DNA of 64,000 bases from Nitrospinota bacterium (GCA_030754595.1 JASLZZ010000078.1:1-64000), one strand, 5' to 3'. Shown: positions 30,333 through 43,045, counted from the stretch's first letter. Made by a program: numbers and translations. The notes: a model not told the origin generated them from the sequence alone.

Positions 30333-31171
30333 AACTCCAGTTCCGCGTGACGATGTGCATGGCATTCAACATTGATGCAAATTGGAAGCGCCCCGATGTG
30401 GCAGGGGTAAGTTTCGATGTGCACCGCAACACAGGTGGTGTCGCCTCCCATTCCCATGGGTCCCACCCCGGTCCGATTCACAGCTTTTAAGATATCCTGT
30501 TCGAGATCGGCAACCAGAAGGTCCGGGTTGGGCCTCCCCAGCGGCCGAAAAAGCGACCATTTCGCAATCTGGGCCGCCTTTTCGATCGATCCCCCCAGGC
30601 CAATGCCCAAAAGAAGAGGCGGACACGGATTCCCGCCCGATTCGAATACATGCTCGACAACCGTTCTCAGAATTCCTTCACGGCCGTCCGAGGGCTTGAG
30701 CATCCTGGCCATGCTCATATTTTCGCTACCCGTGCCCTTGGCGGCGAAATAAAGTACGAAGTGATCCCCCGGAACCACCCGATAGTGAATCACCGCAGGC
30801 GTGTTGTCCTTTGTATTCTTCCGCCTAAGCGGATCGTTCACAACCGACCCACGGAGATACCCATCGCGGTATCCCTGCCGGACGCCTTCGTTAATAGCGC
30901 TCTCGAGGGAGCCTCCGGTAAAGTGGACATCCTGACCAACATCGGCGAACACAACAGACAGACCCGTATCCTGACAGTAAGGGACCCTTTCGGCGGATGC
31001 CAACTCTGCGTTTTCGGTGATCTGATTCAAAATATTGCGACCCAGGGGGGAGCTTTCAGAAGCTTTGGCCGATTCGATTTGGGCCAAATACTCGGGATCA
31101 ACATTATAGTTCGATTCGATTGCCATATCCCGAATCTTTGCGGTGACTTCGGCAACATCAATCACCCGCAT
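30329..31171 (-). CDS. Fe-S hydro-lyase alpha subunit (two-subunit class I fumarate hydratase)
   Basis: CQDTG, KG.GSEN, NPCPP, G.GPMG.GG and CHA.RH motifs; TCA cluster context. Confidence 0.88.
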   Translation of the reverse strand: MRVIDVAEVTAKIRDMAIESNYNVDPEYLAQIESAKASESSPLGRNILNQITENAELASAERVPYCQDTGLSVVFADVGQDVHFTGGSLESAINEGVRQGYRDGYLRGSVVNDPLRRKNTKDNTPAVIHYRVVPGDHFVLYFAAKGTGSENMSMARMLKPSDGREGILRTVVEHVFESGGNPCPPLLLGIGLGGSIEKAAQIAKWSLFRPLGRPNPDLLVADLEQDILKAVNRTGVGPMGMGGDTTCVAVHIETYPCHIGALPICINVECHAHRHAELEF

Positions 31172-31222
31172 CGACAATCACCTCAGGCGGAAAAGGGAGA
31201 CCCCTCCAGTCCCGCCTTTCGG

Positions 31223-33423
<2,201 letters not shown>

Positions 33424-33887
33424 CGCAGGACGCTCCCTACCTGTTGGTGATAGAACGCTGACTGGTCAGCGCCATGACGGCATCAGGACACCGCCACTCG
33501 AAATAGAAAAAAATCCTTGAAAAAAAGAACGCAATCCCAATACCCTGCGCCCCTAAAACAACCTTTTTCAAGAAATCCATCTCGGCAAAGACATGATAAC
33601 CTTTGCCTTTTCCGGTTTAAGCATCTCACCGGAATATGCGCCGGTGATACTAAAGACGCAACGGAAAAAAATCAACTCGGCGGGGACCTTCACCCTCCAA
33701 TGGGAGCTACCCAATCAACCCAACGCATGAATCAACCTGTATCATCCGATAGCAAATGATTTATTCTCCTTGCAAAGTGGAGGGTCATCAGGCAATAGAA
33801 CAATTTGCCGGAATATTCATCCACCTAGAACCCCAGCGCCCCAAAGGGAGCGGGATTCCTCCTATCACTTAATGTAAAGACTTCGGA

Positions 33888-34712
33888 ATGGCTTATCACC
33901 CCAAAAAACGCCTCGGCCAACACTTCCTCCGCGACGGCGATATTTTATCCCAAATTATTGAATTTGGGGAGCTATCGGACTCTGACCAGGTTCTTGAGAT
34001 AGGCGCCGGAGATGGAACGTTAACCCGTGCCCTGCTTGCATCGGGCGCTCGCGTCACAGCCGTTGAGTTGGATCGGGATCTCCTTCCGGGATTAACAAAT
34101 CTGGCTCTGGAAGAGCCCCGGCTCGAACTCGTGGAGGGGGACGCCTTGAAAATGGACCATTTCGATCTCCCCACCCCCATGAAGGTCATCTCGAATCTTC
34201 CCTACCAGATCGCTTCTGGGATCATCTCCGATCTCTCCCCCCGGCCCGACTGGTTCCCCATGATGGTTCTGATGGTCCAGCGCGAGGTGGGAGCGCGCCT
34301 GGCGGCCGGGCCCGGCGGCAAGGATTACGGCTCCCTCACCCTCTGGGTTGGCCACCGTTATAGCGTGGAAATCAAGCGCATTGTGCCCCCCGGCTCCTTC
34401 CGCCCCCCACCCAAGGTGGACTCGGCCCTGATTCTTCTCAAGGCGCTTGATTCGCCTCGCGTCGAGGTCCCGGACGAGGAGGTCTATTTCGGGCTGATCC
34501 GGGCGGCTTTTTCCATGCGGCGCAAGACGATCCTCAACAATCTGCGCTCCTGGAGCCCTCCTGACGGTGGCCCACCTAGCGGTGGTCACCCCGGCGGCGC
34601 GCGACCCGATTGGCTCAACATCCTCAATGAGGCGGAGATCGAGACCCGCCGCCGCGCGGAGACCCTCTCGGCCGAGGACTTCGCCCGCATCGCCCGGGCC
34701 CTCGGCCCCTGA
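33888..34712 (+). CDS. rsmA: 16S rRNA adenine dimethyltransferase
   Basis: KKRLGQHFL, EIGAG.G.LT, NLPY, F.PPPKVDS and RRKT..N motifs. Confidence 0.95.
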   Translation: MAYHPKKRLGQHFLRDGDILSQIIEFGELSDSDQVLEIGAGDGTLTRALLASGARVTAVELDRDLLPGLTNLALEEPRLELVEGDALKMDHFDLPTPMKVISNLPYQIASGIISDLSPRPDWFPMMVLMVQREVGARLAAGPGGKDYGSLTLWVGHRYSVEIKRIVPPGSFRPPPKVDSALILLKALDSPRVEVPDEEVYFGLIRAAFSMRRKTILNNLRSWSPPDGGPPSGGHPGGARPDWLNILNEAEIETRRRAETLSAEDFARIARALGP

Positions 34713-34718
34713 TACGCC

Positions 34719-35876
34719 GTGCGGATACTCCTCTACCGCTCCGGAGCCCAGGGCGACACCCTGCTCACCCTTCCCGCCCTCGACGCCCTGCGCCGCCGCC
34801 ACCCGGCCGCGATCCTCACTCTCGCGGCCCATCCGGCCTACGGCGCCCCTCTCCTGGGCGCGGGGCGCGCCGACGCCCTTATCGACGCCGGGGCCCCGCC
34901 TTTTCACCTCCTGCACACCGCACCGGTGCTGCACACTGCACCAGTGCCGCGCGCCCCTCAGGAAGTGCCGCACCCCGCGCCTGAGACGGACGACCTCGAC
35001 CGCCTCCTTCGGGCCTTCGGCCTCATCATCCTCCTCACCCGCGACCCCGAGGGGCTTGGCCCCGAGGGCGCCGCCGCCGCCCGCCTCCGGTCCCTCAAGG
35101 CCCAGACCAGCAAGGTCAGTACCCTCATCGCCCCGCCCTTTCCGCCCGAGGGGGACCGCCGCCACATCGCCGCCTGGACCTTGGGGACGCTCGCCGCCCT
35201 AAAGGCGAAAATATCGATCTTGCCTGATGCCCCCACCGCACCTGCCGTCAAATGCGGGGAAATGCGCGTTGCTTCATGCGATTCCGCACCGGCGGCGGCG
35301 CCTGAGACCGGACCCGAAGCTGCCTTATCGAACCTCAACCCAGCTCCCGACCCGCTCATACAAACCGAGCAAATACAATCAGATGCCAACAAAACCCTGA
35401 ACCGGCTTGGCATCTCCTCCGCGAGTTCCTTCATCGCCATCCATCCCGGCGGCGGAGGCCGCCCCAAGTGGCCGCCCTCCGCCGCCCTCGCCGCCCTCGC
35501 CAGGGGTTTTTGCAAAAAGACCGGCGCCCGCCCCCTCCTCATCGAGGGCCCGGCCGACGAGGCCCCTACCGCTCTTTTCAAGGCCGCCTGGGGTGCGATC
35601 GCGCACACCAGTGGCGCGGAGGAAATACCCCGCCTCGTCTCCCCCCCGCTCGACCTCCTCTCCGCCCTTCTCGCCCGCTCCGCCGCCTTCGTCGGCGGAG
35701 ACTCGGGCGTCAGCCACCTCGCCGCCCTCTCCGGTGCGCCCACCCTCGCCCTATTAGGCCCCGCCTCCAACCCCGTCCGCTGGGGCCCCATCGGGCCGAG
35801 AGCGGGCTGGATATCGTGGAATAAAGCCGATGAGGGAGCGGACAGCTTGATGAGACTGGCGGGGAGAGAGCCCTGA
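34719..35876 (+). CDS. glycosyltransferase family 9 (heptosyltransferase-like)
   Basis: RILL.R..A.GD, IHPG.G...K, VG.DSG.SHLAA and WGP motifs. Confidence 0.85.
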   Translation: MRILLYRSGAQGDTLLTLPALDALRRRHPAAILTLAAHPAYGAPLLGAGRADALIDAGAPPFHLLHTAPVLHTAPVPRAPQEVPHPAPETDDLDRLLRAFGLIILLTRDPEGLGPEGAAAARLRSLKAQTSKVSTLIAPPFPPEGDRRHIAAWTLGTLAALKAKISILPDAPTAPAVKCGEMRVASCDSAPAAAPETGPEAALSNLNPAPDPLIQTEQIQSDANKTLNRLGISSASSFIAIHPGGGGRPKWPPSAALAALARGFCKKTGARPLLIEGPADEAPTALFKAAWGAIAHTSGAEEIPRLVSPPLDLLSALLARSAAFVGGDSGVSHLAALSGAPTLALLGPASNPVRWGPIGPRAGWISWNKADEGADSLMRLAGREP

Positions 35877-36189
35877 TCGGGGCCGGGATTCGCAGGCGGA
35901 TAGTCTTCCGGAGCCAGATGGGATGCCCCCCCCGAGGCCAACCGCCGGGGGAATGTCAGGCAAGGAACCCACTAGTGGGGAGAAGTATGTCTGGGGAGCG
36001 CCGAAGTGCTTGAAAGTGAAACTATTATTGACTGTTGTCCGGGTCCGGAGGGGCAGTTCGGGTCCGGAGCCGGTCGCCTGGAGAGAAAACCTTGGCGTGA
36101 AATGCCAAACTAGGCTAGGATTTTTCCACAACAAAACCATATGGGAAATGCCGGGCAAGCAGGGTTGCCGCGAGGGAGAGGAGGAACGC

Positions 36190-36693
36190 ATGGAAGCCGA
36201 TGAAAAGAAAAAACTTGCCGAAGAGATCGGAGAGTGCGCCCGCGAATACACCATGAAATACGGCGGCTGAACTCAGACCGTTCTTGCAGCTTTGCAAGAA
36301 AAGCTCGGTATGGAGGATGCGGGCGCCTTTCGTGCGGGAAGCGCCCTTGCCGGCGGTGTGGCCAAGATGGGGGAAACCTGCGGCGCGCTCACGGGCGCCC
36401 TGATGGCGGTGGGCCTCGCCGCGGGAAGGGAGCAACTCGAGGACACCGCCCAGCTGGGACAGTCGATGATCCCCGCCGAAAAGATTTATCTCCGCTTTCA
36501 GGAAGCCGAGGGAACCACGCGTTGCGCCGAGATTCACAAGACCCGCTACGGGCAGAGCTTCCAGCTCACCGACCCGGAGCAATACAAGGCGTTCGTGGAG
36601 GCGGGGGGACACGACGCAACCGGTTGTCCGGACGTTTGCTGCAACGCCGCCCGGATCGCCGCCGAGGTGATCCTCGACCTGCGCGAGGAGTAA
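36190..36693 (+). CDS. C-GCAxxG-C-C family redox protein, predicted selenoprotein (in-frame TGA at 36268-36270)
   Basis: RBS GAGGAGG and ATG 36190; ...YGG[TGA]TQTVLAA continues in frame into AGG....GETCGALTG...TRC...GC; SECIS-like hairpin downstream. Confidence 0.88.
36277..36309 (+). promoter_or_regulatory. bacterial SECIS-like hairpin
   Basis: ACCG-TTCTTGCA-GCTT-TGCAAGAA-AAGCT-CGGT; the apical loop starts with G, 18 nt after the UGA. Confidence 0.75.
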
Positions 36694-36895
36694 GAGGCCG
36701 GGAACCGGCAAGACGGCGGCGGATCTGGCGCTTCCCAGGCTCGTGGGCTGTTCCGCCTCACCTCCTCCGGCGCGCTTTCCGGCTGAAAAACCGGTTACTC
36801 AACGGGCCGCCCTCAGCCCCCCCCCGGCCGGGTGGATTCCGCGAAATCGCGCCGAAGAGGAAGGGGAGCTTTTGATGAGATTGGTGTGGGATTTT

Positions 36896-36946
36896 TCGTG
36901 AATTTACCTGAACGTAGTTACATAACTATCTGATTTTAAGGATATT
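36896..36946. repeat. ~50-bp direct repeat, copy A, containing an IHF consensus
   Basis: 40/51 identical to 38289-38339; TAACTATCTGATT is WATCARNNNNTTR on the minus strand. Confidence 0.65.
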
Positions 36947-37008
36947 CCATTCGATCAACTCGATCGGACCGGCTAAACCCGCATCAAACAGGCGAATGAC
37001 TCGCCGGA

Positions 37009-37977
37009 TTACGACACCCAGTTAATGTTGGCGGGCAGATTGCCGGGATTATAGTCGTTCGCGGCATTTTCCATGCGGTCCTTTACGCTCTGGTGGATAG
37101 ATGCATTCTCGCGAATTTCCCGAGGATCGCTTCCAAAGATAATCCACAATCCCGTGTATGACTCGTGGATTTCATCATGAGGGTTGCCAGGGAATTTTCC
37201 CGCGACAGTGGCATCTATTTCCATTCCGCACCCACCGGCTTTTTCCAACATCCACTGCAGGGCAAGGTTGGAGAGCCCTCGTTCGTCGTACCATCCTCCA
37301 ACGTCGGAGTGCACGCCCGCGAACCACACTTGCTCAATCGTTTGCCCGGCGGCGGCACTATTCGTATCCCATGCGTCATACGGAAATTTCTCCCTTTTCT
37401 CGTCAATGGCCAACGCCTGGTAACCAAGCGTCACATCCGGATTCAGCTTAGAATCATGGAATTTTTTATCGGCGTTCATTGACAGTGATTTCACCGTGTC
37501 CCAAACGCCAATAAAATGAACCGGGCATGCACGCGAAAATATCGCTTTAAATCCGGCCGCGACTTCATCATTTTTTTTGGTGTTGTAAATTTTAGAAGCA
37601 TATTCCACAAGGTTATCGGAGCCTTTTTCGAGCAAACCGCATTTATAAATCATTCCCGCCAGGGAGCGGACAGTGAAAGCCCCCCGGCTAAATCCGAACA
37701 GGTAGATATTATCCCCCGCCTCGTAAAATTCCATCAATATGCGGTATGCGTCCAAGACATTTTATTGCAGACCCTCGCCGGTGGCCTGGTCGCTTTTTGC
37801 CTTAAGGTCCAATGGACTATCTTCATGATATTCCCAACCGCCCGTTCCGACACCCGGATCGTAAAACGCAATTTGCGTTGCGGACTTTTTAGCGGCCATA
37901 TACGTCAAGACTATATTCGTGTTGTTTTTCCCGTACTCGTTCCCGGTCCCATCACAACAAATCACGATATTTTTCAT
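37009..37977 (-). pseudogene. DUF2235 (Tle1-like alpha/beta hydrolase) interrupted by an in-frame TAA at 37762-37764
   Basis: KNIVICCDGTGN, Y..GVGT, GEGLQ*NVLDAY, GFSRGA, GVWDTV and GVHSDVGG motifs; both halves are in the same frame. Confidence 0.85.
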
Positions 37978-38164
37978 TTTCCAATCTCCCCGGTAACAAC
38001 CCAATTCTCCGAGACAAGGGCCGACGGAGATTCCTTTTGATGCTTCCCTCGGAGGAAGGCACTTGAGGTGTTTTTATGTCGGTATCGACCAAGCCCAATG
38101 GCCCACACACCGACTCAGTTTAAAGTTATTTATTAATAAATTTACTACGAAATAACAGGTGGAT

Positions 38165-38177
38165 CAATGATCTGATT
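38165..38177 (-). promoter_or_regulatory. IHF consensus site
   Basis: Plus strand CAATGATCTGATT reads AATCAG-ATCA-TTG on the minus strand. Confidence 0.45.
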
Positions 38178-38288
38178 TCATGCCCCCGGCGCGGTGGTAC
38201 CCGCGCGGGACGAACCGGAAAGCCCGGGTGAATTCCGTGGGAACGCACGGACAAGGGAGCGGAATGCTTGGTGCGGCTGGCGAAGGTG

Positions 38289-38339
38289 TCGTGAAATTAC
38301 CTGAAAATAAGTTCGTAACTAGCTGATTATACTGATATT
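38289..38339. repeat. ~50-bp direct repeat, copy B, containing an IHF consensus
   Basis: TCGTGAAATTACCTGAA...TAACTAGCTGATT...GATATT, matching copy A. Confidence 0.65.
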
Positions 38340-38373
38340 ATGGTATGTCAAAAGCCAGCTTGTCCGGCCCCTT

Positions 38374-39657
38374 CTAGGCCCTCACGCGCCAGACGGCGGC
38401 GGCACTGACGAGCCGTGCGGCGGCTATCGTCCCGAACACCCAGACCCACCCGCCCGAGGCGGCCATCGACAGCCAGCCGAAGAGCCAGGCCTGCACCGCC
38501 CCGTAGATGTAGCCGTGGACGCTCAGGAGCCCGGTCCCGGTCCCGGCGAGCCGGCGGCCGACGAGATCGATCGCCAGCGCGGGCAGCGGGGCCATGTTCA
38601 GCGTGAAACCGGTCAGGAAGAGCAGCCCCGAGGCGAGGGGGGCGTTGTCCGCCGGGCTCAGCGCGATCGCGGCGATGGCGGCCCCGCTCAGGAGGGCGGC
38701 CATCATGATCACCCGTGAGCGGTTGCTCCCGAAGAGGCGGTCCGAGATGTATCCGCCCATCAGGGGCCCGAGCATGATCCCGGCCGGGTAGGCCACCGTC
38801 ACGAGCGACATCTCCTTGAGGCCGAAGCCGCCCGCCTGGGCGTAGTATACCGGCGCCCACGAAACCACCCCGTAGCGGACCAGAACGTCCAGCCCCCGGA
38901 GGTGGCAGGCGAGGACGAAGCGCCAGTTCGTCATGACGTGGACGTAGGCGGCGAGGCCTCTTTCAGATTCCTCCGAGGCGGCCTCGGCCTCGCGGGAGAC
39001 GGCCTCGGACTCGGCGTACTCGGGCAGCCCCACCTGGCCGGGCCGGTCGCGAGCGATGAGATAGATCGCCATCCCCATCAGTGAGATCAGCATCGGGGGC
39101 CAGCGCATCGCCGCGCGCCAGCCCCACTCCGCCGCCACCCAGGGCGCTATCAGCCAGACCACCACCATCGCGACGCCCGCCGAGGCGCTGGCGAGCCCGA
39201 CCGCCCTGCCCCGCTCCCGCCGCGACCACCACTGGGCGATGAGCCCGAGGCCGGGGGCCCAGGTGGCGGCTCCGAAAAACCCGGCCAGCGCCCAGGGCAC
39301 GAGAAGCCCCTGCGCCGAGTCGGCGTAGCTCGCGACAAAATTAAAGACCCCGATACCGGCGGCCCCGTAGAGGAGCACCACCCGGTAGCCGATCCGCTCG
39401 GCGATCCGCCCGTGGAGAGTCCCCCCGAGCGCGAAGCCCCAGAACATCCAGGAGTTGATCCAGCCCGTGTCGGCCCGGGTGATCCCCAGGTCCTCGATGA
39501 CGGCGGTCTGGATGAGGCTGAAATTGAAGCGGCCCAGATAGCTCGTCGCATAAAAGGCGCAAAAGGCGAGCAGCACCCGCCACTTCCACCGGCGAAAGGC
39601 GCCGGCCGGATCCAATGACTCCGCATCTGGGCTCATGGGAGCAGAATTATGGGCCAA
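38374..39657 (-). CDS. MFS transporter (OPA/GlpT-UhpC-like)
   Basis: Y..SYLGR.NFS, W....ERG and GYISDRLF motifs; about 12 hydrophobic segments; start uncertain. Confidence 0.88.
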   Translation of the reverse strand: MAHNSAPMSPDAESLDPAGAFRRWKWRVLLAFCAFYATSYLGRFNFSLIQTAVIEDLGITRADTGWINSWMFWGFALGGTLHGRIAERIGYRVVLLYGAAGIGVFNFVASYADSAQGLLVPWALAGFFGAATWAPGLGLIAQWWSRRERGRAVGLASASAGVAMVVVWLIAPWVAAEWGWRAAMRWPPMLISLMGMAIYLIARDRPGQVGLPEYAESEAVSREAEAASEESERGLAAYVHVMTNWRFVLACHLRGLDVLVRYGVVSWAPVYYAQAGGFGLKEMSLVTVAYPAGIMLGPLMGGYISDRLFGSNRSRVIMMAALLSGAAIAAIALSPADNAPLASGLLFLTGFTLNMAPLPALAIDLVGRRLAGTGTGLLSVHGYIYGAVQAWLFGWLSMAASGGWVWVFGTIAAARLVSAAAVWRVRA

Positions 39658-39916
39658 CCCCGCCCCGCCATCAAATTCGACCGGCGCGGTCTCCGATAGG
39701 CCAGTCCCCGGCGTGGATACCTGGTGCGGCCGGGGCGGTCCCCGATAAGTCGGCTGGCGCGGCCGGGGAAGCTGGCGCGGCGAGTATTAGATTCCACTCA
39801 AGGGTGATTGTGCTAGAATTTCGTTATCCAATAGGGCACCCGGGAAAAGTCGGTTAACAAGACTTTTTTTGTTTTGATAGGGGGAGCGATGCCCAAGGAA
39901 AGGGGGGAGGCCCGTC

Positions 39917-40471
39917 ATGGCTAAAGATGAAAACCCGGACGAGAAAAAGGGAAAGAAGCAATCCGGAACCTCGAAGGTCGTTTTCACGAAAAAGTTGCCC
40001 GCCAAGATACGGGACCTTATCTCCAAGCTTCAACAAAACTATCCGTTTTTCGCCGAGATGCACGAAAAAGAAATCGAAGAACTCCTCCGCCAATGCGAAA
40101 ATGAAACGTTTCGTGACGGAGAAATCATTTTCGAAAAAGGGGCCGGGGGGGACAAGTTTTATTTAATTGTCTCGGGCAGCGTCCTCATTTTCCCGGGTAA
40201 TGCCGAGATTCGCCTGGAGCCGGGAAATGTATTTGGCGAGATGGCGATTCTCGATCGCTCGGAACGTACGGCGACCGCCATGGCGGCATCCGATGCCACG
40301 CTCTTATCCCTTCACCAGAAGGTTTTTTCCACGGAGATGCTTGCCCTGCGCAGCAAGATAGCCATAGGCATCGCCAAGCAGCTTTCCGAAAAACTTCGCA
40401 ACACCAACCAGATCATGAGGCAGATTGCGGATCAGCTTTCCGGTGCCTTGAAAAAAATCGCCGAACTCTAG
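39917..40471 (+). CDS. cyclic nucleotide-binding domain protein (no HTH)
   Basis: IF.KG..GD.FYLIVSGSV and FGEMAILD...RTATA motifs; RBS GGAGG. Confidence 0.85.
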   Translation: MAKDENPDEKKGKKQSGTSKVVFTKKLPAKIRDLISKLQQNYPFFAEMHEKEIEELLRQCENETFRDGEIIFEKGAGGDKFYLIVSGSVLIFPGNAEIRLEPGNVFGEMAILDRSERTATAMAASDATLLSLHQKVFSTEMLALRSKIAIGIAKQLSEKLRNTNQIMRQIADQLSGALKKIAEL

Positions 40472-40493
40472 GGGAAAGTCTCCGAGAAGGCTC

Positions 40494-41240
40494 TCAGTCG
40501 ATCCCGCTGCCGATGCGGACCCAGCGGACGCTGCCCGCCTCATGGTTCCAGGACCAGTAGATCAAGAACGCCGAGCCGCGAATCTTCGAGTCCCAGCAGG
40601 CGGACCGCCAGAGCCCGCAGGGAAAGGGAAGATCCCAGACGTAGTCGGAGAATCTGAGGCGGAAGTGACCGAGTTGATCGCCCGCCTTCAAAAACCCCCA
40701 GAAGCGGCTGTCCTGGCTGTTGTTGCGGTTGTCGCCGAGGACGAGATAGCTCCCCTTCGGGACGCGGAAGGGGGTGCGCTCGCTCGGCGGGCCCGCCGCG
40801 ACCCCGTCGGGGTCCTTGAATACGGCGTAGGGCTCTTCAAGCGGGGCGCACCGATCGAGGGCGCCGGGGGTCTTGCAGTTGACGTAGACGCGCTTCTCCC
40901 GGACCAGCACCACGTCGCCCGGAAGCCCGACGACGCGCTTGATGAAGTCGCGCCGCTCGTCCTGCGGGAAGCGAAAGACGATCACGTCGCCGCGCTCGAT
41001 GTCGCGGAACCAGTAGATGAACTTGCTCACGAGAATATGGTCGCCGACGAGGAGGGTGTTCTCCATCGAGCCCGATGGAATCTTGAAGGCCTGGACGATG
41101 AAAGCGCGCACGAAGAGCGCGAGAAAGAGCGCGATCAGGATCGCCTCGGCGTACTCCCGAATCGTCGACTTTTCCCGCCGGGGCGAATCGGCGTCCTTAT
41201 CGGCGGCCCGAGCGTCCTCGGCCGCGGCGCCCTCGGTCAC
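40494..41240 (-). CDS. lepB: signal peptidase I
   Basis: [20 protein letters not shown] and GDNRNNS.DSR.WG motifs; the GTG overlaps the lepA stop. Confidence 0.95.
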
Positions 41241-43045
41241 GATCCCTCCTTGTTCACATCGAGGACGGCCATGAACGCCTCCTGGGGCACCTCGACGGTC
41301 CCGATGTTTTTCATTCGCTTCTTGCCCTCTTTTTGTTTTTCGAGCAGCTTGCGTTTCCGGGTGATGTCCCCGCCGTAGCATTTGGCGGTGACATCCTTCC
41401 GCAACGCCTTAATCGTCTCGCGGGCGATGACGCGATTGCCTATCGCCGCCTGGATGATCACCTCGAACATCTGGCGGGGGATGAGCTTTCGCATCCGCCC
41501 GGTCAGCGCCCTTCCGTGATAATACGCCTTTTCCTTGTGGATGATCGAGGAGAAGGCGTCCACGGGTTGATCGTTCAGGAGGATGTCGAGCTTGACGACC
41601 TCCGAGGGCCGGAAGGCGAGATGCTCGTAGTCGAAGCTGGCGTAGCCGCGGGTGATCGATTTCAGCTTGTCGTAATAATCGAAAAGTATCTCGCTGAAGG
41701 GCAGCTCGTAGATGAGTTCGACTGTCTGGGTGTCGAGATACTTCATCGTGCGCTGGGCGCCCCGCTTCTCCTGGCAGAGCTTCATCACCGGCCCCACGTA
41801 GTCCGAGGGAACGACAATCGTTCCCAGGATATAGGGCTCCTCGATGTGATCGACTCGGGACAGGTCGGGGAGCCGGGCCGGGCTTTCGATCTCGATCGCC
41901 TCCCCGCCGGTCATCACCACCCGGTAGACCACCGTCGGCGCCGTGAATATGAGGGTGAGATCGTACTCGCGCTCGAGACGCTCGCGGATGATGTCCATGT
42001 GGAGGAGCCCGAGGAAACCGCACCTGAAACCGAAGCCGAGGGCGCCCGAGGTCTCGGGCTCGAAGGTGAAGGCCGAGTCGTTGAGGTGGAGCTTGTCGAG
42101 GGCGGCGCGCAGGTTCTCGAAATCCCCGCTGTCGGCGGCGTAGAGGCCGCTGTAGACCATCGCCTTGGGCTCCTGGAATCCGGGAATCGGCTCGCTCGCG
42201 GGCGAGGCGGCCGAGGTCACGGTGTCGCCCACCTTGGTGTCGCTCACCTCGCGGATGGCGCCGGTGAGCAGGCCCACCTCGCCGGGGCCGAGCGAGTCCA
42301 GTTCGGCGAGACGGGGAAGGAACGCCCCTGCGCTGAGCACCTGGTACTCCCCGCCGGTGGCCATGAAGCGGATATGGTCGCCTTTCTTGATCGTGCCGTC
42401 GAAAACCCGGATCAGCGGGACCGCCCCCTGGTAGGAGTCGAACCACGAGTCGATGATGAGCGCGCGCGCGGGCGCCGCCGGGTCGCCGCCGGGCGGCGGG
42501 ATCCGCTCGACGATGGCCTCGAGCACCTCGGGCACACCGGTGCCCTGCTTGGCGCTGACCTCGAGGCAGTCCGCCCCGTCGAGCCCGAGCACCTCCTCGA
42601 TTTGGGCGATGACCCGATCGGCGTCGGCCGAGGGAAGGTCGATCTTGTTGATGATCGGGATGATCACGAGGTCCTGCTCGAGGGCGAGGTAGGCGTTCGC
42701 CAGGGTCTGGGCCTGGATGCCCTGGGTCGCATCGACGATGAGAAGCGCCCCCTCGCAGGCCGTCAGGCTCCGGGAGACCTCGTAGTGGAAATCGACGTGC
42801 CCCGGGGTGTCGATGAGGTTGAAAACATAGCTCTCGCCCGAGGCCGCCCGGTAGTCGAGGCGGACGCTGGCCGCCTTGATCGTGATCCCCCGCTCCTGTT
42901 CGAGGTCCATCGAGTCGAGCACCTGCGAGGACATCTCGCGGCCGCTGAGCGCTCCTGTGACCTCGAGAATCCGGTCGGCGAGCGTGGACTTCCCGTGGTC
43001 GATGTGGGCGATTATCGAAAAATTGCGGATTCGCTCTGGGTTCAC
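41237..43045 (-). CDS. lepA: elongation factor 4
   Basis: [29 protein letters not shown] and [10 protein letters not shown] motifs. Confidence 0.98.

Follow-up and report, generated by a model that had tools for sequence, protein, structure and literature searches.

Two listed reading frames in a Nitrospinota bacterium very probably form one gene for a C-GCAxxG-C-C family selenoprotein

Results

The DNA analyzed here, which we call the window, is a 64,000-nucleotide stretch from a Nitrospinota bacterium (GCA_030754595.1 JASLZZ010000078.1:1-64000). In the table 11 ORF listing, two ORFs (35923..36270 and 36292..36693) are listed apart, and they lie in one common frame. An earlier reading of this DNA (hereafter, the original prediction) had noticed this arrangement and had proposed that a single selenoprotein gene is split at a UGA codon, and the reading frame bears out what was seen: from ATG 36190 to the TAA at 36691-36693 (+) there are 167 codons with a sole in-frame TGA, at 36268-36270, and translation with TGA read as U gives a product of the predicted 167 residues (...MKYGG-U-TQTVLAALQE...) with a single U, at residue 27. 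The ribosome-binding site that had been noted before this ATG, GAGGAGG, is read directly from the sequence at 36178-36184 (+), 5 nt upstream. Among the homologs listed, the chosen start lies mostly 19-28 codons before the column that aligns with this U (up to 56 codons), and thus ATG 36190 fits as the start of the coding sequence 36190..36693 (+); this is a consistency check, made with a script that took for each homolog whichever start codon was closest to 26 codons before the column.

Model searches placed the product in the C-GCAxxG-C-C family, to which it had been assigned from the sequence alone. The Pfam model PF09719 (C_GCAxxG_C_C) scored 81 bits (cut-off 27), its profile positions 3-117 of 118 aligning with residues 27-159, and the NCBIfam model TIGR01909 (‘C-GCAxxG-C-C family (seleno)protein’) scored 54 bits against 47.4; a single copy matching PF09719 was found in the genome. 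The four-Cys pattern of the family (C ... GCAxxG ... C ... C) is present at residues 27 (Sec), 64, 112 and 146, as is the glycine-rich motif around the second Cys, although its letters are C-G-A-x-x-G rather than a literal G-C-A-x-x-G. The family's own description presumably also gives the motif as CGAxxG. Compared to the Pfam model (118 positions), the subfamily found here has about 25 additional N-terminal residues. Three further families gave lower scores. The DVU_1555 family C-GCAxxG-C-C protein (NF045669; 46.1 bits against 103) and the HUGP/GUXX-star fusion selenoprotein (NF045501; 35.8 bits against 325) are weak matches to the same domain, so that the gene is a member of neither, and it likewise falls outside the split-Soret cytochrome c family (NF047622; 17.9 bits against a cut-off of 400).

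The original prediction had cautioned that Sec-containing members of this family may already be known, and the caveat was apt. The name of the NCBIfam model itself points to such members, and Zhang and Gladyshev 2007 describe, under ‘putative redox protein’, a family of selenoproteins that also has Cys homologs and SECIS-like hairpins (PMC1976440). The tables of a 2022 review include ‘C-GCAxxG-C-C family protein, pfam09719’ as a selenoprotein of prokaryotes (PMC9312934), and those of a 2026 review list a C-GCAxxG-C-C family protein in two forms, 1 and 2 (PMC13188914). As far as the 2007 account of the family goes, the published Sec-containing proteins have in common with this one a single Sec per protein, Cys homologs and a SECIS-like hairpin after the UGA (PMC1976440); the comparison with forms 1 and 2 is one of table rows and description (PMC13188914).

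A protein search returned 488 relatives, of which the full-length ones (165-200 residues) show C or W at the U27 column; many others are 127-143 residues long and start right after this column, as expected if gene callers stopped at the TGA. Since the output of the protein search renders U as C, we counted codons at the DNA level, using a scan of one genome per species that yielded 80 loci with 81 gene copies, one of which is cut before the column and was left out. In the 80 homologous copies that were counted, the codon at the column is TGA in 46, TGT in 18 and TGC in 16. The expectation that the UGA would align with Cys in homologs thus held in all 34 copies without TGA, and Trp or Gly was never its counterpart at the DNA level.

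These counts bear on whether the UGA might be read as an amino acid other than Sec, whether through near-cognate decoding as Trp, Cys or Gly or through a reassigned code. Six full-length database homologs do have W at the column, and this is most simply explained by gene callers that, we presume, used a table in which TGA is Trp. Against such decoding stand the consistent Cys codons just described, the complete Sec pathway of the genome (see below) and the normal use of TGA as a terminator in the host, in which it is the commonest stop and closes 1148 of 2763 frames of at least 300 codons. We consider it extremely unlikely that the codon is read in this way.

Conservation in the protein extends to both sides of the column. 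Alignment A3, with 45 full-length sequences, has invariant Cys/Sec at positions 27 (Sec here), 64, 112 and 146; A17 and G26 are also invariant, as is the stretch G61-E62-T63-C64-G65-A66-L67, with G69 nearly so, and Cys150 is retained in at least 90%. The original prediction had pointed to an extra CC in this member. Its second cysteine, Cys151, is indeed present in the window, but occurs in only two of 26 aligned proteins, namely the window product and the 99%-identical P0002.

We considered that the TGA might be a true stop, which would leave a short upstream ORF and a separate protein of 127-133 residues starting from TTG 36292 or ATG 36310. This is how the table 11 listing divides the locus and how gene callers have annotated close relatives, and it would fit the many database homologs of 127-143 residues that start just past the column. 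However, in the Sec-form loci the codons before the TGA are conserved both in frame and in sequence, A17 and G26 being invariant in A3; the Cys-form homologs run continuously across the column; the truncated product would be without one of the four invariant Cys positions; and the hairpin described below is specific to TGA forms. A true stop is most unlikely. The split is instead one of annotation: standard gene callers divide the gene, and most of its database relatives are stored as the shorter proteins, in records that have neither the Sec residue nor one of the four invariant positions.

To place the window among its relatives, we used a quick maximum-likelihood tree with the Sec/Cys column masked, from which we left out L061, as its frame extends beyond the locus, and in which L102 is without the column. 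In this tree, 46 of the 47 TGA forms fall with three Cys forms into one 49-row group (SH-aLRT 88), and the window is sister (support 93) to L025 from a Nitrospinota bacterium MAG, which is also the nearest named homolog at 69-72% identity. The one TGA form among Cys forms is L089, and at least five Sec/Cys changes are needed on this quick tree. According to the labels in the sequence records, the subfamily is spread over Thermodesulfobacteriota, Methylomirabilota, Nitrospinota and others. We also note two independent loci with a TGA at the first-Cys position that is followed in each case by a different hairpin, L089 (3064-3123), whose clade is otherwise Cys-only, and L108 (G020:C8), a distant paralog with 29% identity. 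To judge from these sequences, Sec seems to have been gained or retained more than once at the first-Cys position.

The original prediction had also described a SECIS hairpin, with an 8-bp perfect stem beginning 10 nt after the UGA and a GCTT loop, and this structure is present at 36281-36300 (+). The 5' arm, TTCTTGCA (36281-36288), pairs with the 3' arm, TGCAAGAA (36293-36300), around the loop at 36289-36292, such that the UGA-to-stem spacing is 10 nt and the UGA-to-loop spacing is 18 nt. This hairpin alone folds at -8.4 kcal/mol, and at -12.1 kcal/mol with a possible lower stem (36277..36309, +) in which ACCG at 36277-36280 pairs with CGGT at 36306-36309. The lower stem had been proposed along with the upper one and can be formed in the window, but it is poorly conserved, with 45.7% of cells paired across 47 Sec-form sequences, and from the alignment it is probably not part of the conserved element.

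Taken by itself, the fold of the 64-nt segment stands out only moderately from shuffled sequence (z = -2.07, with an equally good fold in 8 of 200 shuffles). As a control, among the 1146 TGAs that close frames of at least 300 codons in this genome, three are followed by a perfect hairpin of 8 bp or more with the geometry of a bacterial SECIS, and the same geometry is found after 256 of all 96,752 TGA triplets (about 0.26%). These three TGA codons were considered as marks of further selenoproteins and set aside, as they look like ordinary stops.

The hairpin overlaps the conserved peptide VLAALQE, so that part of its conservation is at the level of the protein. To separate the two, we counted pairs at fixed register in the 46 TGA forms and the 34 Cys forms. 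All eight pairs are formed in 36 of the 46 TGA forms, seven pairs in nine, and five pairs in one (L089, which has its own different hairpin). Thus at least seven of the eight pairs are found in 45 of 46 Sec forms, compared to 2 of 34 Cys forms, among which none has all eight. Even the seven Cys forms with an identical VLAALQ peptide have only 7, 7, 6, 5, 5, 5 and 5 pairs. Since the hairpin is kept in TGA forms and not in Cys forms, the stem goes together with the TGA, and conservation of the peptide is by itself not enough to explain it. Moreover, across the alignment of 47 sequences (the 46 loci and the window), 96.7% of the cells of the upper stem are paired, and one pair is compensatory, being U-A in 30 sequences and G-C in 14, although this switch lies mostly within one clade and hence reflects few independent events. 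As sequence evidence, this comparison of TGA with Cys forms, together with the covariation, is decisive. We also found a second contig, from another organism, in runs X13 and X14 (see below) that matches the window only at 36264-36303; a match limited in this way indicates that these 40 nt are strongly conserved at the DNA level.

A SECIS search had been suggested as a check, and we compared the hairpin with published constraints on bacterial SECIS elements. As summarized for the bSECISearch model in the legend to Fig. 2 of the 2026 review, these are an apical loop of 3-9 nt and an upper stem of 4-16 bp, a G in the first two loop positions, a UGA-to-loop distance of 16-37 nt, and a minimum free energy of -7.5 kcal/mol or lower (PMC13188914). 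The hairpin lies within all four published constraints, having a 4-nt loop on an 8-bp stem, G first in the loop, 18 nt of spacing and a free energy of -8.4 kcal/mol; among the 47 Sec forms, the loop G is found in 46 and a free energy of -7.5 kcal/mol or lower in 45. There are two differences from the model as summarized there. Its loops commonly have G followed by G or U (GG/GU) (PMC13188914), whereas the loops here start with GC (GCUU or GCUC), and the element here, unlike that of the model, lies wholly inside a strongly conserved peptide-coding stretch. An Rfam search of 35900-36900 at E up to 10 gave chance-level matches only and no SECIS family.

We next ask whether the TGA itself could have arisen as an error in sequencing or assembly, or whether a TGC or TGT could have mutated recently and left the locus an inactive pseudogene. 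A single base separates TGA from either Cys codon, and the host genome is a metagenome-derived bin of 138 contigs (96.9% complete, 6.43% contaminated). The original prediction had named TGC or TGT at 36268 as the result that would speak against it; two runs from other studies, X13 and X14, have contigs that cover 36000-36800, with the TGA at 36268-36270 unchanged. The one difference between these contigs and the window is C>T at 36267, which is synonymous in Gly26, and so they are not copies of the window, but they are near-identical to it and could have some connection with the source sample. Furthermore, TGA occupies the same column in 46 other assemblies. Among 30 related genomes, one of the same family (G012) and one of the same order (G019) carry the gene at 68-70% identity, each with one TGA in the same column and followed by the same hairpin. 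An error or a pseudogene is vanishingly unlikely. Contigs from two RNA libraries, X16 and X17, match the window exactly at 36442-36767 and 36367-36542, respectively; they cover the 3' two-thirds of the gene (36367-36767) with the UGA outside both, and they prove presence, not transcription.

If the UGA is decoded as Sec, the host should encode selA, selB, selC and selD, as the original prediction had pointed out, and we found selA, selB, selD and a tRNA-Sec in the same genome, all above cut-offs and all on contigs other than the window. selB (364.5 bits) and selA (551.8 bits) are both on contig C113, selD (345 bits) is on C16, and the tRNA-Sec (73.6 bits), which has the anticodon TCA, is on C102. 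The G+C content and tetranucleotide profile of these three contigs match the rest of the bin. The host selD is a selenoprotein gene as well (G000:C16:24570, locus L011), with an in-frame TGA in a GGUGSK active-site context that is followed by a strong hairpin.

Upstream of the gene, we observed a conserved intergenic element of about 110 nt, at 36044-36155 of the window. Alignment A5 holds nine copies of it from four genomes of the host's family, three of them in this genome; besides the one in the window, the copies are G000:C39:20-118 (-), G000:C70:9055-9127 (+), L121, L122, L123, L126, L127 and L130. Within it, a -35-like TTGGCG (36092-36097), an 18-nt spacer and a -10-like TAGGAT (36116-36121) form a probable promoter (36092..36121, +), judging by invariant columns: T73, A74, A77 and T78 of A5 (TAnnAT, 36116-36121) are the same in all nine copies. 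This candidate matches the consensus at 8 of 12 positions. A consensus promoter and terminator scan reported nothing on the + strand near the gene, the candidate at 36092..36121 included, and Rfam gave no match for the upstream element. The conserved stretch after the -10-like box contains the palindrome CCATATGG (36136-36155). A 20-codon ORF, at 36141-36203 (+), opens with an ATG inside the element and ends with a TGA at 36201-36203, in another frame than the selenoprotein gene, whose first 14 nt it overlaps; the ATG equivalent to that at 36141 opens the downstream ORF (MGNVG...) in some of the other copies. The genes that follow the other copies differ, and include those for a MerR-family regulator (on C70 of this genome), an ABC substrate-binding protein, a glyoxalase/VOC protein and an NfeD protease. 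By its sequence, the element resembles a module of promoter and operator that different genes share, and it perhaps marks a regulon.

The neighbors of the gene itself vary as well. The commonest real neighbor, DUF169, adjoins it in 9 of 81 loci, and other neighbors are clade-specific. Since the gene neighborhood is not conserved, the genomic context gives no function.

The AF2 (AlphaFold) model of the product is all-helical, with a pLDDT of 95.4. Helices of the model begin at residues 27, 65, 112 and 146, so that each invariant Cys/Sec would lie at a helix N-terminus or directly beside it. A Foldseek search against the PDB gave no match at E of 0.001 or lower. In an exhaustive structural alignment, the first row was 1h21_A, with Z 13.6 and an rmsd of 3.1 A over 140 of 167 residues at 19% identity, and the next row had Z 6.1; helical models often reach a Z near 13 through arrangement alone. 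The entry 1h21 is a split-Soret cytochrome c, with ‘a novel iron centre’ in its PDB title, and the part that the model matches is its iron-center domain. Weak sequence alignments to 1h21 (E 0.2-0.6) cover the G-x-x-C-G-A-L stretch and the region of Cys146, the Cys with which the last helix starts, and they end two residues short of the Sec column. The weaker structural rows (cis-aconitate decarboxylase/PrpD-type, CyuA and L-serine dehydratase, at Z 5-6) were discounted, being within the range that is common for helical models.

Discussion

We conclude that 36190-36693 (+) of the window is very probably (about 0.92) one gene that encodes a C-GCAxxG-C-C family selenoprotein of 167 residues. It is a genuine selenoprotein gene that was mis-split, and it adds a member to a selenoprotein family that has been listed since 2007; as such, it is real but ordinary and would not surprise a specialist. 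That the UGA at 36268..36270 is decoded as Sec at residue 27, the first of the family's four invariant Cys positions, was the central claim of the original prediction, and it is supported by the split of the column into 46 TGA and 34 Cys codons, by the TGA-specific hairpin and by the sel genes.

By the mechanism established in bacteria, the hairpin at 36281-36300 would act as a SECIS element during translation and would recruit SelB carrying Sec-tRNA(Sec), such that the UGA at 36268-36270 is read as Sec27; without recoding, the chain would stop at residue 26. Both the comparisons among homologs and the gene content of the genome support this step. In the protein, Sec27 would then stand where the family has its first invariant cysteine of four (27, 64, 112 and 146), and it might supply a selenium ligand to one redox-active metal site.

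The proposal of a metal site comes from the fold: the only strong structural match of the model is the iron-center domain of split-Soret cytochrome c. We take the iron center of 1H21 to be a [2Fe-2S] cluster bound by four Cys. On the strength of the model, we tentatively suggest that residues 27, 64, 112 and 146 may come together in one redox-active metal site of the iron-sulfur type in which selenium takes the place of one sulfur ligand. It is possible, if doubtful, that the selenolate of Sec27 binds directly to an Fe-S type center homologous to the split-Soret ‘novel iron centre’. The likeness to split-Soret cytochrome c is confined to the N-terminal domain fold. The protein found here stands alone, is apparently cytoplasmic, has Sec for Cys at one position, and has neither a CxxCH heme motif in its 167 residues nor a dihaem domain. 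If a selenolate ligand is present, this widespread subfamily would be a natural selenium-ligated Fe-S protein, and the repeated Sec/Cys switches would tune the potential or the reactivity of the cluster. The link between this fold and the iron-center domain offers a concrete and testable idea, a selenium ligand in a site of the Fe-S type, and is the point most worth following.

Alternatively, the protein could be a selenoprotein in which the four Cys/Sec bind no metal and the selenol of Sec27 cycles through a selenenylsulfide with a conserved Cys, as in a thiol/selenol oxidoreductase or carrier. The Pfam name of PF09719, ‘putative redox-active protein’, is compatible with such chemistry, most prokaryotic selenoproteins carry a redox-active motif according to the 2022 review, in the part that deals with them (PMC9312934), and our analysis shows no cofactor. 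On the other hand, there is no pair of the CxxC/CxxU type; the invariant positions are 35-50 residues apart, which fits a set of ligands better than a redox pair, and the one strong structural match is, again, an iron-center domain. We regard metal-free chemistry as rather unlikely, and as somewhat less likely than a metal site. In the open full-text literature that mentions ‘GCAxxG’ we found no biochemical function for the family, and in open papers its members come up only among proteins that are regulated or induced, with no assay described.

The locus itself lies in a variable stretch. We did not find the gene in the four genomes of the same genus that were searched (G001-G004), in which about 35900-37600 is without a counterpart; when 31000-42000 of the window was compared, the DNA on both sides matched at 76-97%, and the surroundings are not collinear. 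It is on this missing counterpart and the non-collinear DNA that we base the view of a variable stretch. By these comparisons, the gene may be a recent arrival, with a SECIS element that may or may not fit the SelB of its host. Beyond the gene, at 37009-38004 (-), lies a gene for a T6SS Tle1-like phospholipase (DUF2235, PF09994), which consists of two adjacent ORFs (37762-38004 and 37009-37755) that cover profile positions 1-77 and 82-286 of PF09994, so that it seems to be interrupted. The G+C content over about 36750-38250 is 0.46-0.53, compared to about 0.60 for the genome, and this stretch may thus be foreign DNA.
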